A DNA stretch of 64,000 nt from Amoebophrya sp. A120 (taxonomy: Eukaryota > Protista > Dinoflagellata), in the NCBI GenBank assembly GCA_905178155.1, contig CAJINV010000002.1, positions 11,971,102-12,035,101 on the forward strand, read 5' to 3'. The notes below the pieces were generated by a model. It made no database searches and was not told the origin of the DNA. It saw only the letters and a program-made list of their open reading frames with translations. The position numbers and the translations under genes were made by a program. Positions 10,079 to 48,655 of this stretch are shown here, piece by piece; within the stretch, counting starts at the first letter, position 1; each line of letters begins with the position of its first letter.

Positions 10079-10364
10079 TAGTGGACAACTCTCTTCCCCT
10101 TCCCTCGCGTTCTTGTATTGCAACACAGCAAAAGCGCAAAATTCTAAGACAAATTGAATACATATACAATTCTATCCCTGTAGCCTTCGGGAAGTATGTG
10201 CAGTTGCATAAAGACAACTTCATTTGGAGGCCCAAATAGCAGTACTAAAGTATCGTGTATAAAAAGGAGCTGCAAAAATTTTCAGGAACAGGATGCTTTT
10301 GACTCTGCCCATGCGCTTTAACATCGACAAATGGGGAGGGAGTCGTGCACTATCATAAAGGCAG

Positions 10365-16597: not shown

Positions 16598-18157
16598 ATG
16601 AAACTTTTATGCTTTCTCGGGCCGCCCGCATCCGGTAAAGGCAGTTACACGAAGCTTGTGCTCGAAACCCTCAAAAGGGTCGCGGCAAGGAGAGACCCTA
16701 CCTCGCAGTGGCACCACAGCGGGGCAGCGGAGCACGTTTTGGCGAAAGATGCAGAAGGCCAAGTTCTTAAGTCGAGCGGTTTCCAACATCATCCAAGCGC
16801 GAGGCTTTACAGGCACCATAATCTTCCTGTCCAACACTTCGAAAAGGTTGTCGCCTCGGACCTTATCAAGAAGGAGATGCGTGAGCAAACGGTCTTTGGC
16901 AAAGAGATGCAACCCTACATGGAACGCCACGAGCACGTATCAAATGTAAAAATGTCTGGGTCTGGAAGATTTCTAGGTTTGTCATGCATATTTTCCATGA
17001 CCCATGATGTCTGTGATGCATGCCGCAGCATCACAGATTTTTAGAGCGCTTTGTGATGCCTCCACAGCATCAGAAATGACCTCTCCGCGTAGCACAAACT
17101 GGAGTCCTCTTGCTGGTCATGCAATACAAATTTTCTCAGAATCCAGAGACAGCAGCACAAGTTGCAATCTTCCAGACCCAGACATTTTTGCATTTGATAG
17201 CACGTTCCCAGTGAGCTGATGGTGGAGACGCTGTGTGCGCACCTCGAAGAAATGGCCGCGCAGAGGAGAGGAGGTTCTTCACTTGAGAAAGATAAAAGTG
17301 TCATCAACCACCTCAACGTTTTGCTCGACGGTTTTCCTAGATCTGTGGACCAGGCAGAAGCGTTTCTAGCCAAGACGAAGAGGAGGCGACGGCTTGTTTC
17401 CGATCAGGAATTAGACGGAGAGATGGACGCCAACCCGCGTGGGGAATCTCGTCTTTCCCTTCGTTTTCTGCATCTCGATCTGAAGCGCGAGTGGGCCCGG
17501 GCAAAGGCGGTTGGGCGACTGGTCTGTCCGGATTGCGATTTTCCGTACAACGACGCAGAGGTACGATTGGACGCAGTAGATACAGCGAGTCAACAAAATC
17601 TTGCTCGCGCGCTTGAAGAGGACATTTATGATTATGACACTCCCTACACTGACACGCGAGAAGAAAAAGCAAGAAAGCGGGACAAGCAAGAAGAACGGCG
17701 CGTGTGGTCTGCCGACTTGCCGCCGGAACCCAAATGTGGGCGGAAACCTGGATGCGGCTACCCAAACAGCCTGATCCGTCGTGACAGTGCGGAGGTGTTT
17801 GACCACCGGTATGAAATCTATCTGAAAACCGAATTTCCGGTGGTGGAGTACTTCACCACGATGGCTGAGGCAGAGAAGCAGGAACTTGTAAATCGAAGCC
17901 GCAGAAAAATAGGAGCAGATGCAACAGATTTGAAAAATATGACCTCTACTGAGAATTGTCGTGATAGTAGCACTAGCACGAAAATCTCTTCCGTGAAAAT
18001 GACCGGCGGGTATCGGACGATGTGTGATGCGATTGTGAAAGAGGTGATGCATCTGCTTGATCTCGACCGTGACGAAAGTTGTAGCAACGAAACGGTTTAT
18101 CCTCTGGAAGAAGTGCAGAAAGAAGCCCATCTTGTGCTTGACGAGTGGGAGCAATAG
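16598..18157 (+). CDS. ADK: Adenylate kinase family protein (exons 16598-16937, 17205-18157; 430 aa)
   Basis: P-loop GPPASGKGS. The NMP-binding region SDLIKKEM...MERHEHV|PSELMV is restored across the introner, followed by LLDGFPRSVDQAE and a LID starting GRLVCPDC. Confidence 0.88.
16938..17199. mobile_element. Introner family A (262 bp) in ADK
   Basis: TIR TATCAAATG(T/C)AAAAATGTCTGGGTCTGGAAGATT; direct repeat GCACG/GCACG; removal restores the frame. Confidence 0.92.
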
Positions 18158-19548: not shown

Positions 19549-22500
19549 ATGTCGGTGATGGATTTCCGAGACGAGGTGATCCAGCTGACTCCGTCAGGCG
19601 TGAAGTACAAGGTGTGCGGCAGGCTAGGGCGCGGCGGCAGTGCAGACGTGTTTAAGGTGCAATGCTTGTACATCCCAGACGCGTTTAAGCAGACCCAGGC
19701 GCAGCGCGTGCAGGTGTTGGAGGAGCAGCTGCTGTCGAACGCCGGAAAACTGACCTACCTCACCCCGCCCTCGGGCGCCGGCTCCAGCACGGTCTCCGGC
19801 GGCAGCACCAGCGCCACCGGGGGGGCGCAGAAGCCGCAGCAGATGCAAACCCTAGGGATGGCCACGAGCAGCTCCAGCAGCTCGATGCAGCCGCCCATCC
19901 TGCCTGCGGTATCCTTGATAGCCAACGACAAGCACCCCGAGCTGTCGGGGACGGGCAGAAATCAGATCGTGAAGCGCAGGCTCTCCGACCTGGTGGAGGA
20001 GGGCAACGAGGACTACAACAACGTTTTCGACGAGAACGACAATCCGAGCGGGTCCGACCTCAACACGGCCGCCGCCTTGCAAGCCCTGCGCGGCAGTGCG
20101 GAGGGCCGGGAAGGCTCGGCGCGGAGAAACAGCACTCGGTCGTCTGCGGCCGAGATGGAACAAAATAGTACAAGTAGCGGCACGGGCGGGGCGGGCAGCG
20201 GTTCCGGGGGTGCGCCCGGGAGTGGCGGCCATCCGAGGTCGCGGTCCGGCGAAGTCGTGCAGTACAGCACATATCAAACAAAAAAAGTTCGTCACGATCA
20301 CTCATGCGCATTTTTGCAATGCAAAACTCTCCGTCATGCGTAAAAATGCATCACAGCCAAACTTCATAAGGGATTTCCCTAGTGTTTCTGCAATACAAAG
20401 AAAAGCTGTCGTGATGCTGAAAAAATTTGTAATGCAAAACCTGCAAGGTAGTGACTGTGACAAACTTTTTTCTCTCCATAGCACGCCCGGATCCTACAGT
20501 GGACTCAACCAGGTGGGCGAGGAAGTGGTGTCTATCAAAAGGAAAAATCCCCCCTCCCCACATCAAAACGAAATTTCTGATGCTGGATTTGAGTACACAA
20601 ATCAGGTTTGTATTGCAGGAAAGCATTGCAGTCAGGTCCCCAGGCTAGGTAGGGGCGTATGCGTTTAGTTGTTCAGCATGGCAAGCAGCTCCCTTCTAGG
20701 CCCAAGAGCATGACAAATCGCTTCCATAGTGGGGCGGAAGCTTCTGCCCTTGTCTTCTTGCAATACAAATGCGATTTTCGACCTCAAATCACCTCCAGGG
20801 CTACGTGCGACCCCTCCGACGCTGCGTGTGGAAGGAGGAAGTTCGGCGTGTCGGGTGAGGGACCCCCGACGGCTGGCCTACGGATATCAGGTGGATCACA
20901 GGCTCAAATCAGCAACACAAATTTTCGGAAACATACCTTTTCGATATGGGGAGGGGGGATTTTTGCTTTTGATAGTCTCCAACCCGAGGTCGCGGTCCAA
21001 CTCCCCGGATGCGCGCCCGCGACAACCGGCCGAGGCACAGACGATCCAGAGCGCGGAGGGGATTGCGACGCCGGACTGGTACCAGGCACCCGGAAGCAAC
21101 GCGCAGTCTCTGGCCCCAAACGCCATAGCAGGCAGTATTAACGTGGCAACATCGCTCGCACCCGGGTCGGGCCCGGGCAGCGGCATGAACAAGACAAATT
21201 CAAACAGCGACGCCGGGACGCAGAAAGAGGGCAGCGTGCACCCGGCTATCTACGACCCGCATTTGTTGGAGAACTACCAGATTCCGATGTTGGAGGAGGG
21301 CAAGTTTTACGCGTTGAAGTCCGTGATGGCCCACAATGCAGCGGAGTTCCAGGTCTTCCTGCGGGAGGTGGACCTGTTGCAGAAGCTGGCGGGGAACCCC
21401 TACGTCATCCACTTACTCGATGTCACCGTGTTGGAACAGGATAGACAGGTAGTGAGTCAGGCTTATTATGTAAAAACTGAATTGTGCGAGAACAAGTGCG
21501 CGCAAGGGGTGAAAATTGTATGCTTGATGAAGATTTTGTACGCAAACAAATCAAAAATGACTTGAAAACGAATTGAATCTGAAGTCTTCCAAAATTACAA
21601 CAGCTCTTCTTGGTACTCGAGCTTGCAGACACAGATTTCGGGCGGTATCTGACCCTGAACCATAATCTGACCGCGCAACAAATATTGGACTTCTGGGTGC
21701 AGATGGTGATCGCCGTCAGAACAATGCACCGAGACCACGACGTCATCCATTTTGACTTGAAGCCAGCGAATTTTTTGATGGTACAATTTTGAATGTCAAT
21801 GTCTACGGTCTTCTTTATTGAGAATGTGTCAAAGCGAATCCGATTAATCATTAGCAATACAGGGCAATGTGCGTTTTCTCGCACACAGTGTGCGTTTTCT
21901 CGCACATCAGTAGCAAAGAAAAGTAGCACATAAAACGAAAACTTCTCATAATTGGTCACCACAGGTAAATGGGCGGCTCAAGCTGGCGGATTTCGGTCTT
22001 GCGCGGCAGCTGGGCGACGAGGCCACGCACGTCTCTAGGACAAACCGCGCGGGCACACTGAAATACATGGCCCCTGAGTGTATCTATCAGCCGCACGCGC
22101 AGAAGTTGCGACTGGGCAAGGAGTCGGACGTATGGTCTCTGGGGATTATCCTGTGTCGAATGATTTACAACACAACACCGCACGCACACTTGCAGGACAA
22201 CCACACAAGAATGCTCATCGCCATTTCCGACACCAGAACAAAGATCAATCTGGTGGACTGCCCACGACTTTACCTTAGGGACGACGGAGTGACGGACCAG
22301 AATATGCGAGAGGTATAATGTCCGTGTTTGCTTTCACCAGACCAACGGCAACGAACTCAAACTATTCATTGTAGTGATGAAAATAACAAGGTCTTGTTCA
22401 TTTTCTGCAGTTGAAGTTGTATACAACCAGGATACTTGTTTGGCTGTGCAAAATACCCTAGCAAACCGCATTTTGTTTGCACATGATTTTTTGTATGCCT

Positions 22501-25500
22501 TCCACTTTTCCACCCGATCCCTCACTAGGTCCATGATTGGATGATGAACGTGGCCCGGGGGTGCCTGATTTTCGAGCCGCACGCGCGGTTCAACTCTGAG
22601 GACCTGTACATGATCCTGAACCGCGCCAAGTTTCCGACCGTGGCCATCATCGCGATGCTCCGCGACAAGACCGACCAGTACACGGTACTGGATGCCATTC
22701 CGGAGTCCGAGGGCGGTGTGTACGGGGCGATGGGACCCTCGGCGATCCCGCGGAAGCGGGACCCCCACTTTCGCGAGAAGGACGACGACGAGGGGACCAA
22801 GCAGTTCGGCCCCACCGGCATGTTCGACGATGCCAAAACCATGCGGGCATTACAAGAATTAGCTGCTGAGTATTGAAGATTTTTGATGTTTGTACGTTGC
22901 ACCCAAGAACTCGTCTGTAGTTTTTCATCATCCATGGCTTGCCATCTTGCATGTCGAGATTCATCTTCCATGGACGACGCATGATCTTTGCTGTATATGA
23001 ATATTATCGACGTGATTTTTCCCTGGACACCGACATTGTTGATATTGTCACACACTACACATCTACAGGGATTTGGATCTTGAGAAACAGGGTCTCCTGG
23101 AGGATATCGAAGAGGACGGGGAATACGACAGCGACCTATCAAATGTAAAAATGTCTGGGTCTGGAAACTTGTAATGCTGAGTGACGTAGCATGAGGAACC
23201 CACAAATGACGGCCCAGCATGACAAGTTTCTGAACTTCTAAGTGTTGCCTATTCTGCATGACAAAGTACGACTCTGCATCACAGAAAAAAAAGGTTTTTG
23301 GGTAACGCGCATGACAGACTTGAGAGTCCTGCTGGCCTAGCATGACAAACCTTGCATTTTTCCAGACCCAGACATTTTTTGCATTGGATACGACCTGGAT
23401 ACAGACGACGAGCTTCTGTCGGAGGATATGCATTGCAAAAGTATCGTACTAGTATGAATCGCAATACAAATTTTCCCAGAAGGAAAAATGGAATTTGTAA
23501 TGCTGATTTCGCTAAGAAACANGACCGGTTCTTCCATATCAAAGTGAAAAAAGCCCCCACCCCATATCGGAAACAGAAGATGCGCGAATTTGTGATGCTG
23601 TATTTGAGTACACAAATCAGGTTTGTATTGCAGGAAAGCATTGCAGTCAGGTCCCCAGGCTAGGTAGGGGCGTATGCGTTTAGTTGTTCAGCATGGCAAG
23701 CAGCTCCCTTCTAGGCCCAAGAGCATGACAAATCGCTTCCATAGTGGGGCGGAAGCTTCTGCCCTTGTCTTCTTGCAATACAAATGCGATTTTCGACCTC
23801 AAATCACCTCCAGGGCTACGTGCGACCCCTCCGACGCTGCGTGTGGAAGGAGGAAGTTCGGCGTGTCGGGTGAGGGACCCCCGACGGCTGGCCTACGGAT
23901 ATCAGGTGGATCACAGGCTCAAATCAGCAACACAAATTTTCGGAAACATACCTTTTCGATATGGGGAGGGGGGATTTTTGCTTTTGATAGTCTCCAACCC
24001 GAGGTCGCGGTCCAACTCCCCGGATGCGCGCCCGCGACAACCGGCCGAGGCACAGACGATCCAGAGCGCGGAGGGGATTGCGACGCCGGACTGGTACCAG
24101 GCACCCGGAAGCAACGCGCAGTCTCTGGCCCCAAACGCCATAGCAGGCAGTATTAACGTGGCAACATCGCTCGCACCCGGGTCGGGCCCGGGCAGCGGCA
24201 TGAACAAGACAAATTCAAACAGCGACGCCGGGACGCAGAAAGAGGGCAGCGTGCACCCGGCTATCTACGACCCGCATTTGTTGGAGAACTACCAGATTCC
24301 GATGTTGGAGGAGGGCAAGTTTTACGCGTTGAAGTCCGTGATGGCCCACAATGCAGCGGAGTTCCAGGTCTTCCTGCGGGAGGTGGACCTGTTGCAGAAG
24401 CTGGCGGGGAACCCCTACGTCATCCACTTACTCGATGTCACCGTGTTGGAACAGGATAGACAGGTAGTGAGTCAGGCTTATTATGTAAAAACTGAATTGT
24501 GCGAGAACAAGTGCGCGCAAGGGGTGAAAATTGTATGCTTGATGAAGATTTTGTACGCAAACAAATCAAAAATGACTTGAAAACGAATTGAATCTGAAGT
24601 CTTCCAAAATTACAACAGCTCTTCTTGGTACTCGAGCTTGCAGACACAGATTTCGGGCGGTATCTGACCCTGAACCATAATCTGACCGCGCAACAAATAT
24701 TGGACTTCTGGGTGCAGATGGTGATCGCCGTCAGAACAATGCACCGAGACCACGACGTCATCCATTTTGACTTGAAGCCAGCGAATTTTTTGATGGTACA
24801 ATTTTGAATGTCAATGTCTACGGTCTTCTTTATTGAGAATGTGTCAAAGCGAATCCGATTAATCATTAGCAATACAGGGCAATGTGCGTTTTCTCGCACA
24901 CAGTGTGCGTTTTCTCGCACATCAGTAGCAAAGAAAAGTAGCACATAAAACGAAAACTTCTCATAATTGGTCACCACAGGTAAATGGGCGGCTCAAGCTG
25001 GCGGATTTCGGTCTTGCGCGGCAGCTGGGCGACGAGGCCACGCACGTCTCTAGGACAAACCGCGCGGGCACACTGAAATACATGGCCCCTGAGTGTATCT
25101 ATCAGCCGCACGCGCAGAAGTTGCGACTGGGCAAGGAGTCGGACGTATGGTCTCTGGGGATTATCCTGTGTCGAATGATTTACAACACAACACCGCACGC
25201 ACACTTGCAGGACAACCACACAAGAATGCTCATCGCCATTTCCGACACCAGAACAAAGATCAATCTGGTGGACTGCCCACGACTTTACCTTAGGGACGAC
25301 GGAGTGACGGACCAGAATATGCGAGAGGTATAATGTCCGTGTTTGCTTTCACCAGACCAACGGCAACGAACTCAAACTATTCATTGTAGTGATGAAAATA
25401 ACAAGGTCTTGTTCATTTTCTGCAGTTGAAGTTGTATACAACCAGGATACTTGTTTGGCTGTGCAAAATACCCTAGCAAACCGCATTTTGTTTGCACATG

Positions 25501-26726
25501 ATTTTTTGTATGCCTTCCACTTTTCCACCCGATCCCTCACTAGGTCCATGATTGGATGATGAACGTGGCCCGGGGGTGCCTGATTTTCGAGCCGCACGCG
25601 CGGTTCAACTCTGAGGACCTGTACATGATCCTGAACCGCGCCAAGTTTCCGACCGTGGCCATCATCGCGATGCTCCGCGACAAGACCGACCAGTACACGG
25701 TACTGGATGCCATTCCGGAGTCCGAGGGCGGTGTGTACGGGGCGATGGGACCCTCGGCGATCCCGCGGAAGCGGGACCCCCACTTTCGCGAGAAGGACGA
25801 CGACGAGGGGACCAAGCAGTTCGGCCCCACCGGCATGTTCGACGATGCCAAAACCATGCGGGCATTACAAGAATTAGCTGCTGAGTATTGAAGATTTTTG
25901 ATGTTTGTACGTTGCACCCAAGAACTCGTCTGTAGTTTTTCATCATCCATGGCTTGCCATCTTGCATGTCGAGATTCATCTTCCATGGACGACGCATGAT
26001 CTTTGCTGTATATGAATATTATCGACGTGATTTTTCCCTGGACACCGACATTGTTGATATTGTCACACACTACACATCTACAGGGATTTGGATCTTGAGA
26101 AACAGGGTCTCCTGGAGGATATCGAAGAGGACGGGGAATACGACAGCGACCTATCAAATGTAAAAATGTCTGGGTCTGGAAACTTGTAATGCTGAGTGAC
26201 GTAGCATGAGGAACCCACAAATGACGGCCCAGCATGACAAGTTTCTGAACTTCTAAGTGTTGCCTATTCTGCATGACAAAGTACGACTCTGCATCACAGA
26301 AAAAAAAGGTTTTTGGGTAACGCGCATGACAGACTTGAGAGTCCTGCTGGCCTAGCATGACAAACCTTGCATTTTTCCAGACCCAGACATTTTTTGCATT
26401 GGATACGACCTGGATACAGACGACGAGCTTCTGTCGGAGGATATGCATTGCAAAAGTATCGTACTAGTATGAATCGCAATACAAATTTTCCCAGAAGGAA
26501 AAATGGAATTTGTAATGCTGATTTCGCTAAGAAACAAGATTTGTCATGCGTGGTTGCAATTAGTACGAGTGCGATACTTTTGCACAGGATAGAGGAGGAA
26601 GAAAAGCGAAACTCAAGCTGTATGACCATCCTCATTGTTCTCCTCTCTATCATCGTCGCAGGTCTCATCGGCTGCATCATCGCCGCGGTCATGCTGCATC
26701 AGAAGAGAATGCAGTCCTCCACGTAG
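19549..26726 (+). CDS. MPS1: Mps1/TTK-like protein kinase with C-terminal transmembrane segment (~777 aa if the 3-kb duplication is collapsed)
   Basis: Exons 19549-20271, 20486-20532, 20980-21448, 21604-21780, 21965-22312, 22529-22869, 23069-23136, 23396-23426 and 26597-26726 form one open frame. Motifs are LGRGGSADVFKV, FYALK, FWVQMVIAVRTMH, IHFDLKPANFLMVNGRLKLADFG, GTLKYMAPE and SDVWSLGIILCRMIY. There are four GT-AG introns and four introners. Confidence 0.75.
20272..20480. mobile_element. Introner family B (209 bp) in the kinase gene
   Basis: TATCAAACAAAAAAAGTTCGTCAC...GTGACAAACTTTTTTCTCTCCATA; direct repeat GCACA/GCACG; reverse-complement relative of 39628-39833. Confidence 0.9.
20533..20974. 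mobile_element. Introner family C (442 bp) in the kinase gene
   Basis: TIR TATCAAAAG(G/C)AAAAATCCCCCCTCCCCA; direct repeat GTGTC/GTCTC; removal gives EEVVSNPRS. Confidence 0.9.
20587..26536 (+). repeat. Apparently identical 2.9-kb direct duplication (20587-23521 = 23602-26536, offset 3015), probable assembly artefact
   Basis: The ORF tracks are identical at offset 3015. The junction has an N at 23522 followed by ~95 nt identical to 28465-28560, which belongs to another gene and introner. Confidence 0.9.
23137..23390. mobile_element. Introner family A (254 bp) in the kinase gene; duplicate copy at 26152-26405
   Basis: TATCAAATGTAAAAATGTCTGGGTCTGGAAA...TTTCCAGACCCAGACATTTTTTGCATTGGATA; direct repeat CGACC/CGACC; removal gives EYDSDLDTDDELL. 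Confidence 0.9.
26442..26591. mobile_element. Introner family D (150 bp) in the kinase gene; truncated copy at 23427-23521
   Basis: TATGCATTGCAAAAGTATCG...CGATACTTTTGCACAGGATA; direct repeat GAGGA/GAGGA; removal joins LLSE to EEEKRNSS and the TM exon. Confidence 0.85.
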
Positions 26727-28189
26727 TAAACTGTTGTACACAATGACTTTCCTGGGGGTTACCTACCACGACAACCACAAGCGACACAAAATAGAAGCAA
26801 GCACCTGTAGTTCTCATGAGTCATAAGTACATACATGAATCCACAGCGAGTTACCTAATCATGTTCTTGTTCCAATTATGTTCCTTTCGTACGAGTAGTT
26901 GAGTTCCTATCATACAATACGCCTTCGCACACGGTGCGAACTCCTTGTCTAATCATGATATATTTACATTCACTAGATGCGATCGCGCATACAAGCCAGT
27001 GAACTGTTCTTTTTTCTGTTTGACGATTGTGCTCTGACATGTTTGGCTTTTTCAAAATCTTTATCATCTTGACAAACGTGGTGGTGAAAATATTTAAGGC
27101 GAACTCAGGGCGGGCCTGTAAGGTCATGCTCCTCCGTGATGTTACTGTATAATGAAGCAAAGACCAAAGAGGTCGTGGGTTGCTACGAGTACAATGTACA
27201 GCCTGCTGTCGATCACATTGCTATGGTTTGAGTATACGATATTTCTATACAACTGAATTTGTGTACATGTTGGAGCAAAATTCTTGTCTCTCTCCGGAGA
27301 CGACGACGCGACTGACAATATTAGATAATATTGAGCGATTTTGTCACAATCTGCTTCTGCGGCCAGAACCTTTTACTGGGACAGACATAGAAGATCGGGG
27401 ATTTTGTGACTTTTCCAGGTTGTCGCTACACGGTATCTCACGACACGACGTTGCTGGCCATTGAAAGGAAAAGAACGCTATTCCCCGCACTGCTAGTCTC
27501 ATTTTGGTTCGCGTTCAAGCAACGAACGGATGCTGCAGTTTCAACAGCAAGTTTTTACACGAGAAAAGACGGGCTGCGATGGAAAAGATCGTCGAAAAAA
27601 GAGGAGAAAGCGCTGCATGCTCCTGAGGGTTCCTCGACGGTGCCGAACTTGCGTGTTCAACATATCGCGCGCCGTGGTCTGTCCGCAAAAACGATGATAT
27701 GTTCAGGATTGAAGATCCTCTGTGTGATGTTGATCACGTCATCTCAACAAGCGCTTCCTGGCAAAATCGATGTAATGTATGCGTGTTTTCGCTTTCGGTT
27801 TCGATTAGCGTACGGTACAGCTACAGGTATTCTTATTTCTTGTGCTTTTCGTGGATCCCTCCCTTTTATTTTCTGTTGCTTTTCGTTTTGCGCAATTCGC
27901 AAGTTCTACGAAAGTTCAGATGTTGTTTGTACAAGAACATCACAGTTTCGGTCGAGAATCTGCGCCGACGCAGCTGCATTGATCCACTCTCGAGATAGGT
28001 AGAAGAAAAAGTCGAGCACCAACTGGTGCTGCTCTAGAAATTCCTCACATTTCTTGCTTCTGTATCTTGTTCCTGTAGTTCTAGTTGGTAGGTTCTTTAT
28101 TGGTGAAAAAATGTTTCGCAAGTTGAAAAGAATGAAGCGAATTTCGGTTTTGTTGCTTCTGTTTTCGCACAACGCGTACTTTTTCCAGC

Positions 28190-31100
28190 TCTGCGTCTGT
28201 TTGTACCAGGAGCTGTTTGAAGACTACTCTGGTGCCCCGAAAAAAACACGAAGCTCCACGTCCTCAACAGACAAAGGTACTACAGAAGAGGCGGACGCTT
28301 CGTCTTCTTGGCGTGCCAGCTTCAATGAGGAGCTGGAAAAGCTTGTGTACGTGGGAGAGATAGAGGATGGGTACAACGCCGCGATCTCCAAGCAGACACT
28401 TACGCGCGAGGCACGGGAAGTGCTTAAGGACTCAACGAAACACAGTCGGCACAAAGCGTTCTGGGACCGGTTCTTCCATATCAAAGTGAAAAAAGCCCCC
28501 ACCCCATATCGGAAACAGAAGATGCGCGAATTTGTGATGCTGTATTTGAGTACACAAATCGACTTGTATTGCTAGAAGGCCAAGAGACGAAGCTGCGGCC
28601 TAAATGGCAGGTAATCTGTCATGCTGTTTCCCACTTCCAGTTGCCTCCTGTCATCCTGGAGCTGCAAGGCTTTCCCACGCTAGACAGCACTACAGTGCGC
28701 ATCTTTTGCCTTCTGGCATCACAAAGGTGATTTGTGACCCCAAATCTGCATCACAGATTTCCGTTTTGATATGGGGAGGGGGCATTTTTCATTGTAATAT
28801 TCCAGGAAGACACCTTGGTGAAACCAGACACGGCTCGGCAAAGCAGCACCCGGCAGGGCGGAGGTGAGGCCAGAAGAGCCGTGGACGGTAAGATGAATTT
28901 GTAACAGTAAAAATCGTAATTGATGTAATACAGAACCTAGACGACCTTACTGAGCGTAAGCAGGAAGATGGAGCGAGAAAGAAAAAAGAACCATTCTATT
29001 CATTTCCCTTCTCCAAAACCAAATCCCTTGGCTCTGTTGTGATCATCTTTTTCGCAAACGACTGAAGGGCGCAGCCTGTCCGATTGGTCCTCGCAATCTT
29101 GCACGCACACAAAGCCTGCGGGCGAGTTGCGGCCCTGGTGGATGGTGGAACTGGATGCGAACATTCCGATCGGCACCGTTCACATCCTGAATCGCAAAGA
29201 AGCGGCCGATATGCATTGCAAATACGTATTGGTCTGGACGAAAGATGGAGCATGTATTGTGTGTCTTCAGTCTTTATTTGCATGATTCCCCAAGAACCAG
29301 TTTTGTATGACAAGGAAAAGTAGGAGCGCCACTTTCTTGATCATGCAAAATAGACGAAGTCTGTATAAATGCGAAGCCCCCCGTGGGAAAATTGTCATGC
29401 TTTGACGCGCTAGAAATTTTTCTGAGACTCATTCATATACACTTCACAAAGTTCCAGACCCAGGAAAAAATACCCCATGCATAGCCGATCGACTGTCCGA
29501 GTTCGAGGTCCGGATTGGAAACGATCGAAATCTCGCGTTGGACAATTCCCATTCTTCAAGTGGGAGAAGTAGAGGCTCCTCCACCAGCACTTCTTCTGGA
29601 GCTTCTTACTCGGTCTGTCGCGGCGATTCCCGGAACCCCGGGCCGGGAGCCTGGGCGGTGGTGGACTGCAGTGGCTTTGAAGGGAAGTACCTCGCGGTCG
29701 TATTGACCGCAGACGATCCAAAGGCGGTGCTCACACTCTGTGAGGTATCTGTAAGTCGCAAAAATGTTGATGCAAGGTGTACTGTGTGGAGCTCGAAAGT
29801 GCTACTCTAGAAAGTGAGAAATTTAAAAGCGATATCAGACTCCAGCCTGTGGTGTGCCCGTTGTGCAACAGGTTTTTTCCCCTGACTATGATAATGGTGC
29901 CCGTGGTCGATTCTGCTTCTATGCTCCACACACCAGGTTCTTGTCTACCCGCAGTCGATTCGACATCACCCTTTCTTCCTTTCCGCTGCCCTGGCATTCG
30001 ACGAGTATACGCAGATTTTGCGCAGCTCCAACGAGAAACGGGAAGCCTATTACGTCCTTGGGTTGGCGAAGTTAAGGCAGCTACTCAGACAGTTGTTCGC
30101 GCTCGAGAAGCTGAACGGCATGCAAGACGAGGAGAAGAGTGGCGGGATGAGAACAAGAAAACAAATTGCCACAAGTTCTTCGTCGAGGGTTAAGAACTCA
30201 GCGAACTGGATCGAGCAGGTCGAGGAACTGTACACAGCGCTATCGCTGGAACTGCCCACGGAATTTCGCCAGCGACCGGAGATACTGCGCATGCGCGCCG
30301 AACTGTACGCCGAGGTCGGTTTTTCGCCCTCCTGCGCAGAGGTTTTGCAGCACGGAGCAGGAGGAGCCTCCTCAGGCGGGGACTCGGCATCTGCCTTCGC
30401 AGGCACTGCGGACGGGTTGCCGGGACAGGAGGAGGGCGACGATTCCGCCCTGGACACAAGGTCCACCTCCGCCATCGCGACGCTGAAGGGCAAGGGGAAG
30501 TTGCACCAAAGGAAAGAGGCTGCGCTAGCAAAAGCAGCAAGCAATAATAAAGCGATAACGGCTTCTGGTGAAAAATTATCCAGTTCCTCAAGTAGTACCA
30601 GTTCTAGCTCAACAATTCCCCCCGCGGATCAGCTGGATGGAGCGACGAGTCCGGCGCAGAATAGCATCTGTTGCAAGGACAGCATTCTCGGGACGAACAG
30701 TGGGTGCCTGTCTACTGCCTTGGCCTTGTACAAGTTTGCGGAGAACTTGGAGGAGGAGGCGGATTTGCTATACGAGAAAGCAATCGAGCATATCCTGAGT
30801 AAAAACATCCCCACACCAGAGTCAAGATGGGGATTTTGCAACACAAACCTAGAACTTTTGGGGGTCACGCAATACAAGTTGCAGTCCGTAGTGTAGTGCA
30901 GGTTCGCAAGGCCAGCTGCATCAGAAATCCATCTGCTTATCCTGTTTACAGCATTACAAATTACAAAACACGACTAAAAATGCCTCTCCTGGCGATGCGC
31001 ATTACAAATGTTCCTGTCATTGCAAATCTGCATGACAACTCCGTAGCCATTTTGGCTCAAGGCTCTGCCTTGTTGCCTGAGATCCTACAAATCTAGAATA

Positions 31101-34100
31101 GGGGGAGCTATGCCGTAGAGTAGATTTGATAGCTCACAATCATTTTACCACCACTGACACCACGTCGGTATCTCCCCCGACTCCCTGAAGAGGAGTTTCG
31201 AAAGAAGTAGATAAACACCCGAGCGTGGCGGGTCCGCTGTGCCCCCCTTTACAGTAGCCTACTAGATCTCAGGCCCCCCTATACACTAGCCGAGATCTCA
31301 GAACCAGCGCCCCGTGCTGCCGAGTACCCCTCCTAAAAATGACCTCCTCCCCGCCCGGACACGGCGCCTGAATCCTGCAGCAGTCGTCCACGCACCATCC
31401 TGCGCAGCAGCAAGGTCCTTGCTTAGCCTGACGGGCATGGGCAGCAACTTCTCCATGTTCGCGGCAGAACCGGAATACGAAATCAGACTGGGGCAGGAGT
31501 TCTGGGAAGGGTTAAGTCCACCATGCCGCCGGTGGATTAAGCAGCTCGGGTAGGCTTCGGCAAACGGACACCAGGTCGAGGTTTCGCGAGCGTGGATGCC
31601 CCCCAGCTCGCCCAAGCCAGTAGCAACAAGCTCAATCGAGTCTTGTTCCCCAGCGCAATAGATGCGATCATGTAGGGGCGCACAATAGATGCGAGCTCAA
31701 GGCTTGGCAGCGCTGGGGGAGATGGTGTTGCCCACGACGCGGGAATATTCCCGCCGTGGAATCGAGAATGAACCTGGCGCCGAACGTTTTACGCTTCTGT
31801 GTTGCTCCCGCGTGGGCAGCGGTCCGCGTGCAGAAACGTGCTCTACTTGAGCAGCCTTGCCAATCGTGTATCTGTACCCCGCACTTTCGGTCATGTGTAA
31901 AGCAATCGCCGATCATGATCGCCAAATCCGGCGGTCTAGTGGATCAGCATTAAATCTCGCACCTCTTACCTTTAATTTGGATGTTTAAACATCACTTCAG
32001 GCTGGCGCTTGTCGCTTAGTGCCTCCAGTGAATGCATTCGTCCAGACAGTAACAACTGGTTTGCCGCAGGCTGCAGCTTTCTCTTGTAGTTGTTGGCCTG
32101 GCTGTACATCCCCGTTATAGTGGTTGCGAGTTGGAAGTTTGCGAGAATCAGAGTAGGGAATTGTTGGCAAAAAAAAGTGAGGCGTTGTTCAGTTGGCAAG
32201 TTGGCACAGTGTGGATGGTTGCGTTATTTTATTTCACCAGAGCTCCAGTTATTTTCCTTCACCAGAGATCCCTTCTAGTTATTTTCCTTCACCAGAGCTC
32301 CAGGTAGTTTATGCGTGATCCCTGGTTTTCCGACAGAGCACTGTCTTGCATGCGTCAGGAAAGCCGCCTTGGGTGCCACGGTACTTGAGGACGTGTTATA
32401 TGTCTCGGGCGCACGTACATACTAGCCTGCAGGGACGGCGGAGCCGGAAAAAAATTGCGAAGTATGTTTGGTGGCGATAACAGAGTTGGAATATAGTGGC
32501 CGGGAGATGATGGTGATGGCACTTAGGTGTCCGCCTGACCCACCCGCCCTGCGTCTCAGGCCATCTGCGGCTATGGCACAATGGGGGGGCAAAGTGTGTC
32601 GCATTTTGTTTAGCATGACAACTCTGGTGTGGGGACGTTTTTACTCAGGATAGAGCAGGGCTTTTCCGCATGGAAGAGCTACTTCCAGACGTGCGAAATT
32701 TTCCTGCCGTTTCTGTTCCAGAAGCAGATATGGATTGCAAAAATGTCTGGGTCTGGAAGATTGCAACTTGTCATGCTAAATCCGAATCATGCAGAAATCT
32801 GTGTTGCATGAGTGCCAAAAGCTGTCCACTTTCGACCAAGTTTGGAGGGAGTTTCTCATGCAGGATTGGCATGATAGAGACTTCGCAGAATCTGTCATGC
32901 GAAGTACCGCATTCCAGACCTCATGGGTCATGGAAAATCTGCATGACAAGTTTTCACTTTTCCAGACCCAGACATTTTTGCAATCCATAGCAGAGCAGCC
33001 AGAACAACAACCTGGCCTGGGACCGGAAGCAGCCGGAGGTGGCCGACCTCGTCGCCGTGCTAGAGAAGAACAAAGTTTTGCTCGAGCAGGACTTGAAAAA
33101 GTTGCTCATGGACCCGCTGGGCTTGTTGAGCTCGTTGCTCAACGAGGCAGCAGTCAATGCCAAGACACCGCCTCAACTTCCGATTGGGGGAAGCAACTCG
33201 GCTTCAGGTACTAGTTCTTCCACGGGCGGCGCCGACCACGCTGCAAGAGACCGAGAACAAACGCTAGACTCCTTTGCGCGACTTGTCCGGGAGAAGCATT
33301 CGAAGAGCCAACTCGGGAAAAATTTGGCAGGAGAGCAGGACGATGGCAGTGCCGAGATCGATGATGGGAGGAATTCAAAGCGAGGCAAAAGGTCAGCACA
33401 AGTAGATGATCATCAAGAGCAGTACGTTTTTAACCGAAATACGTTCTTCCACGTAGCCGCGACGAAGCAGGGCGCGTGGATCAAGTTCGTGCTCTATACG
33501 GGGGAATACGGCTGGAACCCGAGTTACTGTCCGGCGAATGTCGCGGAGAATTACGCGACCAGAAACTTCAACTACGAGCAAAACCTCGTGGGCAAGCAGG
33601 TGACGAGCGAGAGGGAGCTGGCAATCGGGAAGAACAAGCTTCACGCGTGCACCATTTTCGAGAACAACAACCACCTGCTACCCGGGCACGAGTTCAAAGA
33701 TTACTACTTTCTGGCAAACAACGAGGAAGTGTCCTTCCAGTTGTTTCTTCCGCGAACGAAAATAGGCACGCACAGCGGCGGATCCAACACGCGGGTCAAC
33801 TTAGACTTGAATTTGTTCAACGTAGCCGCGGAGAATAAACGCAGTCCAGAGGAAGCAGACGAGTCGACCGGAAGAAACACAAAGAAACGGAAGAAGAACA
33901 AGAAGCAAAAGAACAGCACCACTACCTCGAGCGACCGTGAACTGACGTCGTTTATCGAAAAGGAAATCACGAGTAATGCACTGTTGCAGCCGTTCGTCAC
34001 TGGGGAGTTCTACCGCGGACAAATCGTAGAAGTCGGAGCTGCATCTTCGTCACGTACTGGACTGGGAGTAGAAGTGGCAGGTGAAGAAGATATGTCATTT

Positions 34101-34454
34101 GGCAAAAAACTACGTGCAGATGAAAATACGAGCGACGTCGTGCACAGGAGGCATTTCTTTCGACAACGCATTGGCAATCGGGAATACCAACATGCAGTAC
34201 TAGAAGAAGAAGGCGCTGCGACGAAAAGCAGGAACGTCATCTCCAACGAGGACGTCGTAGTGTACGACGACTGCCAAGATCTCTCGATAGAAGTCGGAGA
34301 CCTCCCCGTTTTCAAGTTCCAGGTGGGCATTATGCACCCGTCACTGATAGAGGAACTGGCGGCGCGAACGCGGCCAGCTGGCAGTAGTAGTGGCGGATCA
34401 TCAAGTACTGGTACCGCAGGGTCAGGAAGGAGAGGGAAAGGCGGAGAACTGTGA
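28190..34454 (+). CDS. Large multi-exon protein with an F-type lectin (fucolectin) domain; 5' end unresolved
   Basis: Removing four introners and the GT-AG intron 28888-29067 gives ARQSSTRQGGGEARRAVDG..SCTHT..PWWMVELD..IGTVHILNRKEAADRLSEFEVRIG..GKYLAVVL..LTLCE. The frame continues through 30015-30790, 32658-32728 and 32995-34454. The junction near 29745-30014 is uncertain. Confidence 0.75.
28479..28799. mobile_element. Introner family C (321 bp)
   Basis: TATCAAAGTGAAAAAAGCCCCCACCCCATATC...GATATGGGGAGGGGGCATTTTTCATTGTAATA; direct repeat TTCCA/TTCCA; removal gives WDRFFQEDTLV. Confidence 0.9.
29210..29483. mobile_element. Degenerate introner (274 bp, A/D-related) inside the lectin motif
   Basis: TATGCA...TGCATA ends with inner GGTCTGGA/TCCAGACC; direct repeat GCCGA/GCCGA; removal restores NRKEAADRL. 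Confidence 0.85.
31040..31061 (+). other. Complete dinoflagellate spliced leader (DinoSL) relic at the 5' end of the nested insertion
   Basis: TCCGTAGCCATTTTGGCTCAAG matches the consensus DCCGTAGCCATTTTGGCTCAAG exactly. It is followed by GC, not GT. Confidence 0.95.
32227..32302. repeat. Short degenerate tandem repeat (TTTATTTTCCTTCACCAGAG unit, about 3 copies)
   Basis: TTCACCAGAG occurs three times with 26-30 nt spacing. Confidence 0.7.
32729..32989. mobile_element. Introner family A (261 bp)
   Basis: TIR TATGGATTGCAAAAATGTCTGGGTCTGGAA; direct repeat GCAGA/GCAGA; removal gives FQKQSSQNNNLAW; opposite orientation to 39301-39564. Confidence 0.92.
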
Positions 34455-35225
34455 TCGCATAAATCTTTGTACGTTTTAATAGTACGAAAATGATGAAAAT
34501 GAGGTGCGAGAGCGAGAGCGATCATTTCTTTGATTAATGACGCGCAACTTTTCAATTTCAAGTGATAGTACAGATCGATGCTGTTTGCTTGTTTTATTTG
34601 TTTGGTGTTGATGGAGCCGCGTCGTTCCGGTTGAAAGCCTCAAGAAATTTAATGGAAGGACAACATACATTCCACGACGCGCGGGCGCGATGGAGCATTT
34701 TGACTCCCAGCGAACGAACGCGAACTCTATTTGATAGATTGATTACCTATGCGTCTAAGAAAACTAGCCGGGCCGTTTCTTGACGTCCCCGGTTCGCAGA
34801 AATTTTCTTACGTACGGGTTTCTTCACAAGGAAGTGATGAAATTGCGACACGCGCAGCGACAACATTTGCGACAGCGATGTGCTTCATCTTGCCGAAGAG
34901 GTACAACAGCGAACCTATCGAAACCTATTGAAAGTGCGTTCACCGAGATCAAGCTTTTGATTGTATTTGATACCAACCTGTATGGCAGCTTTAATCTCTA
35001 TTGCTGCACCCTCGCACGGAAGTGTACGCTAAGTAGCCCTAGCAACGTCTAGTTGTTGAAATTTCTCCACGCCTTTGATATCTGATTCACTACTGATTTT
35101 TAGCCAACGGAAACAACACTGACTTGTCCGTTTTTGAGTTGTCTCCTTGTTTGTCGTGTCAAAATTTCTTTTCACGTAGAATTGTTATTCGAAAAATCTT
35201 CACGAAAACGAAAACCAACCTGACC

Positions 35226-36098
35226 ATGGATTGTTATTGTAAAAGGAAAAGGTCGGTTCCGGTTGTCAAAACGATCTTGACAGCCACTTATTGTTATTCT
35301 CTGGCAACCGCGGTAACCGCTGCCTTTGTAGTTCCCCAGCCGGAGCCGGACTACAAGCGACCACGTATTGACGAAGTACTCCGCCCCCGGTATGGAAGCA
35401 GTATGATGAATTACTCGGGCAGTAAGAAGAAGAACCATCAGTTTTTATTCACAACTAACGAAGATGAACCACATGCACAAGCAGGTGGCGGTGTTGCTGA
35501 AGATATTTCCATGCACCACGCGCAATACCGAAGCTGCGAAGAGCGACTACAAACTCACCACACCGCTACTACTACTACCGAGCAACCGAACTGGCAGCCT
35601 GCCGCGTCTCCACCAGCCTCGCCTGCCACGTCATCTGCGTCAACACCTTGCCCTCCGGCATTCAAATTTGACCGTCGTGGCAGCGGTTCGCAAGACCCGG
35701 AACAACTGCAACAGCCGTCGCAGCAAAATGGACATGCATCATTCCTAGAGAGGAAAGCAAAGGCTCCAAGACTCCAGGATGATAGGACCTCCACGTCGGG
35801 CGAAGTACACACCTACAGCACTGTCCTTCCAACATCCGACCAGAACATGGGCGCTCGTGATGGCGTGGGACCAGCGCAGCTACCAAAGCCGGCGGAGCTG
35901 GGAGAGGACCGCAATAGCGCGGCGAGCCTTGTCCTTCCAGGATCGGGCGGTCGCGCCAGACCGGGACCACTTTTGGCGACAGCGCTGAGTCTGCCGACGC
36001 CCTGGCAGACGTCGGACCCGGACCTTCAGCCGCAGGGGCTACATGACCTCTACGGAGACTTGCCCCCAGCCTTCTTTGAGTTTGGCATGGGCGGATGA
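35226..36098 (+). CDS. Hypothetical, probably secreted, low-complexity protein
   Basis: Open frame from the first ATG, with a hydrophobic N-terminal segment (ILTATYCYSLATAVTAAFVV) and an SFLE motif. Confidence 0.55.
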   Translation: MDCYCKRKRSVPVVKTILTATYCYSLATAVTAAFVVPQPEPDYKRPRIDEVLRPRYGSSMMNYSGSKKKNHQFLFTTNEDEPHAQAGGGVAEDISMHHAQYRSCEERLQTHHTATTTTEQPNWQPAASPPASPATSSASTPCPPAFKFDRRGSGSQDPEQLQQPSQQNGHASFLERKAKAPRLQDDRTSTSGEVHTYSTVLPTSDQNMGARDGVGPAQLPKPAELGEDRNSAASLVLPGSGGRARPGPLLATALSLPTPWQTSDPDLQPQGLHDLYGDLPPAFFEFGMGG

Positions 36099-37071
36099 TG
36101 TTTTACCTTTTTACTTTTATAAATAAAGATAAGTATATGTTTTGCTTTTGCACCACTGTGCATAAGATCACGACGCACTTAACAACTGATCCTCAACTTG
36201 AGATGCTCTGGCCTGTTGTCTATAACTCGAGAAAAGAAGCGCAGCCATGCTTCACCATTCAGTTTTCTTTCACTTTGTTCATCGACTTGTTGATACCTGT
36301 ACATAAATTTTTCGGCCATCATCTCTTGGACATAAATTGTTCGGCCACGTATACGTTAGTTAGTACGCGCGGAGTCACTTACCGTACTCAAGAAGAAAGC
36401 TGTTGTGGCTGCTCCTTGAAATACTTTGTATACCATAGACTCAGGCATGATGAATCTTATTTTGGATATCGGATTAGGCTTAGATTTGTCCTGGCTCAGG
36501 TGGATTGTCATAACGTATAACCGCACGACTGTGCATACATATAGCGAACAGACTTTCAAAAAATTATATCGGACCACAAAAAAATAAAGGAAGCCTCACA
36601 GAATAGGGAGGAGGTGCAGAAATTGTGAGCACGACTTGATTGGTGATTTTGCTCAACGAGTGTATGTAAAGCAGATCACTTCACGCACACAAGACAAACT
36701 TCACTTCACAAGTGTGCGTAAAGCTAAAAGAACTAGAAGGTGCGTTTTCATATTTTCTATTTTGCTCGAAGAAGACCAGGATTAGGGGATAGAGTGGAGC
36801 AAGCAATGACGAGCACACTTGTGCCAACTAGTTGTATCAATTGCTTTTGAAAATGAAAACACAGGAAACTCGCTCCCGCGTAAAGATGATCCGCATTTAT
36901 GGAAACCAAACTCAGGGGGGTCGACGTGTGGTGAAAATTTTGCTAGTGGAACTTGAAGGACAGAAGCTCACAGAAAGAAGTGCGGCATGGTCCAAGCTTT
37001 CCCTGAAGAGACGACGTTATTTTTCCGAATTATTTCGCGATGTCGATCATGTGCATTAGCGAAAGGAAGAA

Positions 37072-37122
37072 AAAAGCAACGATATACGACTATAATAAAA
37101 AAGCAACGATATACGACTATAA
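37072..37122. repeat. 24-bp tandem duplication
   Basis: AAAAGCAACGATATACGACTATAAT occurs twice. Confidence 0.8.
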
Positions 37123-37880
37123 TGGAGCTGCAAGCTTCAGCCTTTTCATACAGTGTATGAAAATAAAACTCATTTCTTTGACGAACTGCTATCGCTTGAG
37201 AATGAGAAAACAAAAAGACCGAAAGCACTTGAAGAAAATAAAACTGAACTATGGGGCAAGCGTTGATCAAATCGTTAGTTGCTGTTTAACAAAAGTTCCG
37301 CCCTTTTCTTGGTGAAGAAGGTGGACAGATGGAATGCGAGATAACAAAGAAATGAATCCTCAAGCCGTTTGCTACTTTGCTTAGCCCCCCACAAATAATC
37401 CGGGGATGACTTTGCGAGGATTGCGGACACCTTTGTTGCGATATTTCATCGAGCCGCTTGCAGCTAGATTGCTCAGCACACCAGAAAAACACTCGGGGGC
37501 AGCTCAATGCTGAAAAGATCTTCAGAAAAAACAGCTTCACTACATGGAGCCCCGTGCTGGGTAATACCACTACTAGTAGTACTGTCTGCAGAATCAACAT
37601 CGTGGCAACTCTCACTGGGCTGGATCGGGGATCGATCGCATTATCGAATTCTGACCCGTTTTACTGGCTAATATCTTCAGGGCAGAGACAATAAAAACGA
37701 AACCGACCACGGAATTGTGATATAACGTTCAAACTCTCATATTTGTACGGCATTGCACTCGCTTCACCGGATTGATTCGTCGACATCGTGAAAGAACAGA
37801 CGTGGGAATTTTCAAGAATTCGTATTTTGACAATTTGTAGTTTTCCAACAACGTATGCGTATCAACATCGACCAGTCAAC

Positions 37881-40277
37881 ATGGCAGAAACATTCCCTAG
37901 TAGTACTGGTGTTTTTTCTTCCTTAGCGGAACTTCCAGCACACCTGCCGGTTGTATTGGAGGGGCAACTACCGCTTTTGTTGCCGCTGAAGGTCGGAAGA
38001 AAAATGCTATACGACGCAGGAGCGGTGTTCCGGCGCAGCGTGGACGACGTTTCGCATTTGCCCGTGGCGGTGCAGGAACTTTTCGCCTCGGTGCCGAAGG
38101 GAGCACTGCCACCCGCGGAAATTTTGCTGACGCTCGGCTGGCTGTTTTTCAATATTCTGTTCAGCTACCTCGGGTTTTCCGTGCTGCTCCAGCCTCGAAG
38201 TAGACCAGAGGTCTCGACCGTGGACGACGATGCTTCTAAAGGTTCAGCTGCAGCCACTTCTGCCAGCGACTCTTCCAGGTCGGCGCCTCCTGGCAAGAAG
38301 AACCAGGGCAACTACACCAAGAATGGCACTGCGGAGGACCCCAACAAGTCTTCAGCGTCCGACATGTTCACCATTCCGCCTTTGATTGATCTGAGCGAGA
38401 CGAGAAGCAGGACGAACAACCTGCTATTCTTCCGCCGCACGATTTTCGCCCTGGTACTGGGCGTTGTGCCGATTTACGTCGTGTACAGTTCGGTGTTCCT
38501 GCAGCCGTTCCTGATCTTTCTGTTTTGCAGCTCCGTCGCGGTCCTGTACTTCCCCCCGGTGCTCACGACCCTGATCGCCATTGCCGTGCTGAGTTGGTGC
38601 CACCTGAACGTGATGGGGAGCATGGGCCGTGGCGCCGACGCCAACGCGGACGTGGCGGGGGCAGCTTCGGACCACACCGACTACAGCGACCCAAGCGGGA
38701 TTTTCATGCTGTTTTGCGTGCGGCTGTCGCAGGCCGCGTGGGAGGTCTACGACGGAAAGATGCTGGCGCGAAACCCGACCAGCCCCCTGTCCGCGAACCC
38801 GAAGGTGGACCAGTTTCGCCGCACGCGGGCGGTGGTGCCGCCGGAGAGACCAACGGTGTCTTGGATTCTGGTGTTTTCCGCCTTCTGCGTGTTCTTCCCC
38901 GGAATTTTAGTGGGGCCCTCCGGCGGCCTGCGCGATTTTGTCGACTTTCTCGACATCGCGGGCAGCTGCAACGACGGCAGTGCCGCCAAAATGAACTTGT
39001 CCCGTCGTCCCGTGAACAAGCTGAAGATCTTGAAGCTCATCTTCACCGCCCTTACGTGCGCTGCGATCTACCAGGCGGCCAACGTGGTCCTTCCACTGAA
39101 CCGGGACATCCTCGACAACTACTTGCCCACCCTGCCGGTGGTCCTGCGGATTCTGTACCTGACCTTCTCCGTGGACGGCTTTCGCTACAAGTACTACCTG
39201 GTCTGGTCTCTCTCCCTCGCGGCCTCAACCGCGAGCGGGTTCTCGACTGACGACAACGACAAAAACGCGCAGAACGTGGACATCGTGCGCGTGGAAACGT
39301 TATCCAATGCAAAAATGTCTGGGTCTGGAAGAATACGCGATTTGTCATGCAGCTTTTCCATGACACCCATGAGGTCTGGAATGCAGGACCTAGCATGACA
39401 GATTCTGTGCGATCTCTCTCATGCCTATTCTGCATGAGAAACCCCCTCCCGACTTGGTCAAAACTGGACGACTTTTGGTAATCATGCAACACAGATTTTT
39501 GCATGCTGCGGATTTAGCATGACAAGTTGCAATCTTCCAGACCCAGACATTTTTACATTTGATAAACGTCCACCGCCATGGCGGACATGCTGGTCGGGTG
39601 GAACACCAGTGTGAGCTTGTGGCTGAATATGGAAAGAAAAAAGTTTGTCACAGTCACTAACGTGCAGGTTTTGCATGATAAATTTTTCCCGCATCACAGG
39701 TTTTTCTTGTATTGCAGAAACACTAAGGAAATCCCTTATGAAGTTTGGCTGTGATGCATTTTTACGCATGACAGACAGTTTTGTATTGCAAAAATGCGCA
39801 TGAGTGATCGTGACGAACTTTTTTTGTTTGATACTCAAGTGCTCGGTGTTCGAACGTGTAATGGACAGCAGAGTGATCAACCGGTTCTTCCCCAAGTCAA
39901 AAAAACTGCTCGCGACTACCATCACCCGCATCTTCTCCGCGGTCTGGCACGGCTTCCGTTCGGGGTACTACTTGTTCTTCCTCTCAACCGTGCTGGTCAC
40001 CGTGTCCGAGGCCCACCCGGTGCTGCGGTGGCTGGAGGCGAAAGCGCCACTGGTCAAGTGGCTCCTGCATGCCATGTTCTTCAATGTGGTTGCGGTGCCC
40101 TTCGTTGTGCTGACCTGGCAAGACTCCTTGAAGGCCTGGAATTTGGTCTACTACTCCGCTCACATAGTCATGCTAGGCTTCATCGCCTCGCAGCAATTCT
40201 CGAAGTTCTCCAGCTGGAAGCTACCCCCGAGGGCGGGGGAGGAGATCAAGCAAGGGGAAGGGAAAAAGGAGAAGTGA
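37881..40277 (+). CDS. MBOAT-family lysophospholipid acyltransferase (exons 37881-39300, 39570-39627, 39839-40277; 638 aa)
   Basis: Multiple TM segments, FFPGILVGP and RYKYYLVW. The conserved WNTSVSLWLK lies on the 58-nt exon between two introners, followed by the catalytic-His motif SAVWHG and GYYLFF. Confidence 0.9.
39301..39564. mobile_element. Introner family A (264 bp) in MBOAT
   Basis: TATCCAATGCAAAAATGTCTGGGTCTGGAAGA...TCTTCCAGACCCAGACATTTTTACATTTGATA; direct repeat AACGT/AACGT. Confidence 0.92.
39628..39833. mobile_element. Introner family B (206 bp) in MBOAT
   Basis: TATGGAAAGAAAAAAGTTTGTCAC...GTGACGAACTTTTTTTGTTTGATA; direct repeat CTGAA/CTCAA; removal gives WLKCSVFERV. Confidence 0.92.
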
Positions 40278-48555: not shown

Positions 48556-48655
48556 TCATCTCCATCATCATGATATGCATTGATATTGAAGGTACGACGC
48601 GACGGGGTGGGTTGGTTTTTGATGAAGATACGGCGACGGCGATAACGCGATCTGC

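Follow-up and report, generated by a model that had tools for sequence, protein, structure and literature searches.

Inverted-repeat introners of Amoebophrya sp. A120: removal from transcripts in either orientation and a putative cut inside the target-site duplication

Introners interrupt plus-strand genes in both orientations

We analysed a 64,000-nucleotide (nt) stretch of the Amoebophrya sp. A120 genome (contig CAJINV010000002.1, positions 11,971,102 to 12,035,101 of the forward strand), hereafter the window. Genes in the window are interrupted by introners, which are the known A120-type introners of Amoebophrya (Farhat et al., 2021; PMC7789003). These elements are DNA transposons of the non-autonomous, inverted-repeat kind; they lie in exons, facing either way, and a 5-nt direct repeat flanks each of them. 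Members of families A and B lie in opposite orientations within genes read on the + strand. Removal of both orientations is real and supported by transcripts for family B, and likely for family A. Coordinates are collected in Table 1, and single elements are named below by family letter and first position.

Alignment confirmed the two inverted pairs described in the earlier note. B20272 is the reverse complement of B39628 (91.9% identity over 209 nt, E 4e-81), and positions 32736–32982 of A32729 align in inverted direction with 39557–39308 of A39301 (85.4%, E 8e-78). After 45 nt had been cut off each end, the interiors still aligned in opposite orientation, with scores of 168 against 18 in the same orientation for the B pair and 217 against 24 for the A pair. 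The terminal repeats therefore do not account for the orientation call. A further copy of family A, A16938, has the same orientation as A39301.

The assignment of all hosts to the + strand also held. The B20272 join sits in a transcript contig with four GT..AG introns on the + strand, and a poly(A) tract at 27589 ends the other part of that contig. A39301 and B39628 both lie within a + strand MBOAT gene. Excision of A32729 joins + strand frames of 322 and 486 codons, and its host has a coding score of 60.4 on the + strand versus 1.6 on the − strand, given by a codon model trained on window open reading frames (ORFs) that include these and thus not independent of them. A search for a longer homologue of the reading frame that hosts A32729 found none, which is weak evidence.

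We collected the elements by searching for sequences with TAT...ATA ends, complementary termini and a direct repeat on the two flanks. At its loose threshold, the scan gave 24 candidates, compared with 4–17 in three shuffled sequences. Twelve elements were retained on terminal-repeat score, repeat match and reading frame, whereas low-scoring candidates, cross-pairings and a copy in a duplicated block were dropped; the element at 29210–29483 is a thirteenth, added later than this set. At all 12 sites, excising the element with 5 further nt brings + strand frames together.

In the Brix gene, the orthologue of Amoebophrya sp. A25 is continuous across the site at 53022, so the element is an insertion and its repeat a target-site duplication (TSD). 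A25 provides the nearest named homologue of the window Brix protein (83%; the next are at 72% and lower). Terminal inverted repeats (TIRs), a TSD of fixed length and an empty orthologous site, the features that define miniature inverted-repeat transposable elements (MITEs), are all present. The depth of DNA words over the elements is very high, as for repeated sequence. No transposase family was found in 21 scanned ORFs, including those of two long TAT..ATA elements; Rfam gave no match in the window, and a viral scan found nothing.

The element at 30791–32652 is an enlarged member, and its excision with 5 nt joins 298 and 510 codons. Its internal sequence of about 1.6 kb is moderately repeated (DNA depth 88–450 versus 45) between intact ends, and its length exceeds the 1000-nt limit given for the 2021 intron analysis in the text of PMC7789003.

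Table 1. Introners, host genes and canonical introns in the window (positions count from its first letter)
Feature	Position	Strand	Remarks
Introner, 284 nt	10074..10357		TSD AAGGA / AAGGC; frame regained; no transcript cover (no evidence either way)
Family A introner, 262 nt	16938..17199	+	TSD GCACG
Host gene region of B20272 and C20533	19516..27589	+	Stretch with four GT..AG introns; no Pfam match for two pieces tested
Family B introner, 209 nt	20272..20480	-	TSD GCACA (20267-20271) / GCACG (20481-20485); opposite to B39628
Family C introner, 442 nt	20533..20974	+	TSD GTGTC / GTCTC
GT..AG introns	21449-21603, 21781-21964, 22313-22528, 22870-23068	+	Transcript-confirmed
A-related introner, 254 nt	23137..23390	+	TSD CGACC; second copy 26152-26405 in duplicated block
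150-nt introner	26442..26591		TSD GAGGA; truncated copy from 23427
C-related introner, 321 nt	28479..28799		TSD TTCCA; frame regained by element + 5 nt
Introner, 274 nt	29210..29483		TSD GCCGA
Host reading frame of 30791 element and A32729	29895..34454	+	No Pfam match
Introner of 264-284 nt family, enlarged to 1862 nt	30791..32652		TSD GAGCA; ~1.6 kb internal sequence
Family A introner, 261 nt, inverted	32729..32989	-	TSD GCAGA; terminal bases complementary 28/28
MBOAT-family host gene of A39301 and B39628	37776..40277 (stop-to-stop limits)	+	PF03062 on both sides; frame open across both joins
Family A introner, 264 nt, in MBOAT gene	39301..39564	+	TSD AACGT
Family B introner, 206 nt, in MBOAT gene	39628..39833	+	TSD CTGAA / CTCAA
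Family C introner, 322 nt, in Brix gene	53022..53343	+	TSD AACGG

Introners are absent from transcripts and retained in DNA

The transcript evidence comes from contigs of four runs, all of one sample, whose label as RNA is a guess. These contigs lack the four GT..AG introns, and one of them terminates in poly(A). Two further runs of raw RNA reads, labelled as the same species, yielded only 15 and 5 matching reads.

Seven window elements are absent from the transcript contigs, and the missing segment is always the element plus 5 nt. The joins are 16931>17199 for A16938 (267 nt, 4/4 runs), 20265>20480 for B20272 (214 nt, 1/4), 20530>20978 for C20533 (447 nt, 1/4) and 23131>23391 for the element at 23137 (259 nt, 3/4). 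For the 150-nt element, contigs of two of the four runs leave the genome at 23426, just before the truncated copy, and continue with letters that match those after the right TSD. One contig is made of 38339–39294 and 39837–40781 with 62 letters between them; by the record coordinates, 480 nt are missing, which equals (264+5)+(206+5), so that A39301 and B39628 have both been removed. Together, the joins at B20272 and B39628 show that both orientations of family B are removed. At A32729, a contig with 103 further letters leaves the genome at 32989, the end of the element; we infer the join from this boundary and the strong frame test. The elements at 28479 and 29210 have no join among those listed.

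In DNA, the run depth over the stretch is 42–49 outside repeats. DNA contigs run from exon into element unbroken at A32729, A39301, B39628 and others at a depth of 42–46, and one 6364-nt contig spans from inside A32729 to inside A39301. The elements are the dominant state of the DNA, in contigs that drop rare forms.

Orientation, target duplication and reading frame in a wider sample

We extended the analysis by scanning metagenome contigs with the family A end motif, which enriches for family A. The scan returned at least 153 loci, nearly all from one assembly, with 212 unique elements; removal at these loci is deduced from reading frames, not transcripts. A perfect TSD of 5 nt flanks 166 of the 212, compared with 0–3 elements for lengths of 3, 4, 6, 7 or 8 nt. 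The frame test covered 137 elements with at least 4/5 TSD matches and 150-nt flanks, at a coding score of at least 12. Excising the element plus 5 nt restores the coding frame in 108 of them, whereas adding 4 or 6 nt does so in 13 and 10. Left in place, 155 of 163 elements would bring in an in-frame stop. Element length modulo 3 (59:42:62) is uninformative.

Host strands could be assigned confidently for 108 of these elements, which with 12 window elements make a set of 120. The earlier note had proposed counting orientations per family across the genome; here, the count covers this set, in which nine families comprise 98 elements after exclusion of 22 singletons. Orientations divide 24:17, 11:9, 6:6, 5:1, 2:3, 4:0, 2:2, 1:2 and 2:1. 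Both orientations occur in eight of the nine families, with the minority orientation accounting for 39 of the 98 elements. Family A is the largest (24:17, p 0.35); a held-out set gave 5:16, for a total of 29:33.

The ends share the motif TAT-N7-AAA, with A at positions 11–14 in 100–116 of the 120 elements at both ends; the TAT itself was a criterion of the scan. A subterminal motif, GCAWBACA on either strand, occurs in all 120 elements, on average four times per element versus 0.02 times per 260 nt of exon. Given this shared motif, the families resemble a single superfamily that has a common putative binding site for a protein, which may be a transposase or a splicing factor.

Splice signals and predicted folds

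GT or GC with AG, in any register, was found in 12 of the 120 elements read in the sense direction and in 7 read antisense, and whichever register is taken, neither +1 nor the acceptor has a conserved base. Branch-point scores were 5.06 in sense, 5.08 in antisense and 5.31 in shuffled sequence, showing no enrichment. The motif, for which the earlier note had suggested a test, is also weak in the four canonical introns, so its absence from the elements is weak evidence. The CDG/CHG motif of euglenid introns is also missing, as the ends are TAT/ATA; this speaks against placing the elements in that class, but not against a similar way of working.

The four canonical introns at 21449–23068 start with GTA, three of them lack G at +5, and their 3' tracts are rich in A and C with little polypyrimidine. 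These features are in keeping with an unusual spliceosome.

In predicted folds, the two ends pair in 105 of 118 elements as sense RNA and in 112 of 118 as antisense. Both orientations of family B fold better than shuffled sequences (z −3.3 and −6.0). A polarity at end position 4 appeared post hoc (28:8), then fell to 12:9 in a held-out set (54 called of 79), and was rejected.

The cuts appear to lie inside the target-site duplication

Three removed elements, C20533, B39628 and B20272, have one mismatch between their TSD copies, and their junctions are hybrids of the two copies. The transcripts of C20533 and B39628 keep base 3 of the left copy, the B39628 contig resuming at 39837, and the transcript of B20272 keeps base 5 of the right copy. 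If one register serves all elements, the cut interrupts the TSD, following its base 3 or 4, which places it 1–2 nt before TAT and 3–4 nt after ATA.

The duplicated sequence is close to arbitrary. TSD bases are near exon composition at four of the five positions, with an excess of A at the centre (p 0.011).

Comparison with known systems

In the text of PMC7789003 available to us, A120 introners are described as non-canonical repeated introns of about 240 nt with inverted ends of TAT, seven variable bases and a run of A, flanked by direct repeats of 3–5 nt; a hairpin and a distinct splicing mechanism are already proposed there. We find no structural difference between those introners and the window elements. 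The main and supplementary text examined discusses neither orientation relative to the host gene nor the cut site in the TSD, its figures lying outside the search. More widely, our literature search, which left subscription journals and figures aside, found no statement that Amoebophrya introners work both ways or where in the TSD they are cut. A 2025 study classes most Amoebophrya introner families as TIR DNA elements, and its pipeline, as described in the sections consulted, requires same-orientation alignment, so that the either-orientation property would go uncounted (Gozashti et al., 2025; PMC12130899). According to the part of the text seen, a 2022 introner study allowed opposite-orientation matches (PMC9860276).

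Introners that work in two directions are already known from other organisms. In Polarella glacialis and, second-hand, Aureococcus, transposons with TIRs and TSDs are reported to form introns in both orientations and in several frames (Roy et al., bioRxiv 2020.10.14.339549). According to the portion of that preprint available, those introners have GT, GC or GA and AG ends and require certain TSD sequences, with an orientation bias in classes 6, 8 and 10; the window elements have such ends in no register, a nearly arbitrary TSD and no detectable bias. In Fritillaria borealis, introns derived from MITEs with TIRs and TSDs outnumber canonical introns, as summarised in the consulted part of a review (PMC11282704). 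Those are described as having preferred AG-AC or AG-AT ends and spliceosomal removal, whereas the window elements have no preferred ends.

The nonconventional introns of Euglena also resemble the introners. They are described in the sections consulted as having paired inverted motifs set at fixed distances from the cuts, a lack of GT-AG, direct repeats at the junction and a suspected MITE origin (PMC12501133; PMC11282704). The introners are alike in their inverted motifs, lack of GT-AG, direct repeats and MITE origin, and a fixed distance between paired ends and cuts is consistent with our three junctions. The Euglena introns differ in motif (CAG/CTG versus TAT/ATA), in spacers (3 and 5–6 versus 1–2 and 3–4) and in a purine rule after the intron, and they belong to an unrelated lineage. 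Excised circles have been shown for Euglena. What appears to be new here is that three properties come together, namely an unbiased orientation, the lack of terminal dinucleotides and a cut within an arbitrary 5-nt duplication, along with a ready means of mapping that cut.

A symmetric-end model of removal

We propose that the introners are removed by RNA splicing in which the paired TAT...ATA ends, and not GT, AG or branch signals, set the distance to the cuts, with a putative nuclease-ligase as catalyst. We hold this reading tentatively, as close to an even call. Whichever way the element faces, its inverted ends would form a stem. One cut would fall 1–2 nt before the stem and the other 3–4 nt after it. 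A dedicated activity of the nuclease-ligase type, as proposed for euglenid nonconventional introns, would then join the exons, and the released intron would be linear or circular, with no lariat. An RNase III with a ligase has been proposed for diplonemids in the text seen of PMC12621601.

The earlier note had attributed removal to symmetric features, namely the stem, the TAT/ATA ends and the direct repeat. This survives in part. We detected no signal specific to orientation or target and both orientations are removed, so the symmetric ends likely set removal. A perfect direct repeat is unneeded, as the three imperfect TSDs were removed exactly. The further step from both orientations to a process that is not spliceosomal is unsupported, because inverted ends of 25–35 nt read the same either way, and because the either-orientation introners reported from Polarella and Aureococcus have ordinary splice sites.

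Several observations weigh against a stem-measured cut. Selection on the stem as RNA was undetected: G-U and A-C mismatches number 102:112, and the end-duplex energy is equal on both strands. Transposition is enough to account for the inverted repeats, and the ends could be recognised as linear sequence. Three junctions define the register, and each was found in a single contig of one sample. Among single TSD mismatches in the window and the wider loci, 15 of 21 are synonymous, which a fixed cut does not predict. In 76 of 163 elements (p 0.001), the first base of the TSD occupies codon position 3, an awkward result for a fixed cut measured from a stem; this excess is confined to TSDs with a central A or T.

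The main alternative is a modified U2-type spliceosome without U1, for which the inverted ends give the same degenerate donor (N-TAT) and 3' region both ways, while a stem or a binding protein positions the sites. We regard it as a serious contender, though rather more likely wrong than right. Register 4 fits all three informative junctions, and an intron in this register would begin with N-TAT, like the local canonical donors GTAG, GTAC, GTAT and GTAT, with TA aligned to their +2/+3. The excess at codon position 3 equals phase 0 for a cut after base 4, but since it occurs only with a central A or T, target choice may explain it. In the available text of PMC7789003, Amoebophrya has nearly all spliceosomal proteins while U1 is undetected; the spliceosomal removal reported for Fritillaria and the either-orientation introners of Polarella also suit this explanation. 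It is opposed by the lack of a conserved base at +1 or the acceptor, of branch-point enrichment and of a replicated polarity at end position 4. The lack of orientation bias also stands against it, as all three Polarella classes described as working both ways are biased. We slightly favour a nuclease-ligase over this spliceosome, and our data separate the two poorly.

In a second alternative, sliding, the direct repeat links the two cuts and these shift along it, so that each TSD base in the mRNA may come from either copy. The synonymous mismatches speak for sliding, because at most 41% would be expected if one copy were free intron (p ~0.005, post hoc), and a figure legend of the source paper calls the splice sites variable relative to the hairpin (PMC7789003, seen in part). 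However, gene conversion from empty alleles with synonymous variants yields the same pattern, imperfect repeats are still removed exactly, and the three junctions show no alternative letters in contigs that drop minor forms. We consider sliding improbable.

Precise excision from DNA, leaving an element-free template, was the other mechanism put forward in the earlier note. Its model is the TA-bounded internal eliminated sequences of ciliates, which are transposon-derived and symmetric and leave one repeat behind; the introners likewise descend from transposons, are symmetric and lose one direct repeat. Ciliate sequences are removed from DNA and bounded by TA, whereas the introners are kept in DNA, where contigs enter them unbroken at single-copy depth, and are flanked by an arbitrary 5-mer of which transcripts bear a hybrid. 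The search for precise excision junctions in DNA contigs gave none among the 15 joints listed; with 263 further joints, rare events are possible. To our knowledge, no separate somatic nucleus is known in Amoebophrya. Excision from DNA is thus very improbable as the source of the joins.

Artefactual joins are equally hard to credit: a hairpin with a short direct repeat is a classic setting for false introns and the transcript evidence is presumably all cDNA, but a reverse-transcriptase switch at the stem base predicts a whole right TSD copy and an RNA polymerase jump at the direct repeat a whole left copy, whereas left base 3 was seen twice and right base 5 once; hybrid junctions thus argue against both, as do the in-frame stops of unremoved elements and the orthologue continuous across one site.

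Returning to the nuclease-ligase reading, we speculate that Amoebophrya may have a second mRNA splicing system, independent of the spliceosome and of an origin separate from that of Euglena. For this system, any transposon of the superfamily would count as an intron, whatever its orientation or target sequence; the system would cut within the 5-nt duplication at positions set by the stem (possibly with sliding) and ligate the exons, acting as a general RNA-level antidote to transposon insertion. This wider proposal seems to us plausible, although somewhat short of an even chance.

Since 2021, it has been an open question by what means Amoebophrya removes tens of thousands of introns that lack GT-AG. 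Removal that is free of orientation and target narrows the signal to the symmetric ends, and removal in either orientation makes the splicing mechanism testable. Naturally imperfect target duplications offer a way to use existing reads for mapping the real cut positions across the genome. Should the catalyst be something other than the spliceosome, structure-guided splicing of nuclear mRNA has a second origin; should it be the spliceosome, this is one that needs neither terminal dinucleotide.

Other repeats and reading frames in the window

A 5.5-kb element at 55829–61357 has TAT..ATA ends, 72-nt inverted repeats (94%) and an apparent 8-nt target duplication. Its interior is 60–70% GC, with a central 162-nt palindromic array at 58509–58670. 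Its ORFs gave no convincing Pfam match, and it is absent from the fetched metagenome loci. The differing TSD length suggests a different transposase. Another type of TIR element at 47677–48621 has nested inverted repeats (47874–47939 and 48490–48555, 89%) and an outer 18-nt pair, without TAT..ATA ends.

Positions 20533–23521 and 23537–26539 form a 3-kb tandem duplication (99.3%) across a single N at 23522, and 23523–23618 is identical to 28465–28560. The duplicated block is present once in a 2559-nt transcript contig, whose record coordinates add up. Scaffolding misled by family C introners is the most likely source of this duplication, which would then be an artefact.

On the + strand, an ORF of 1866 codons at 1686–7286 encodes cysteine-rich repeats of about 175 codons and has no Pfam match. 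A short palindromic repeat unit recurs at the end of the window (63744–64000).

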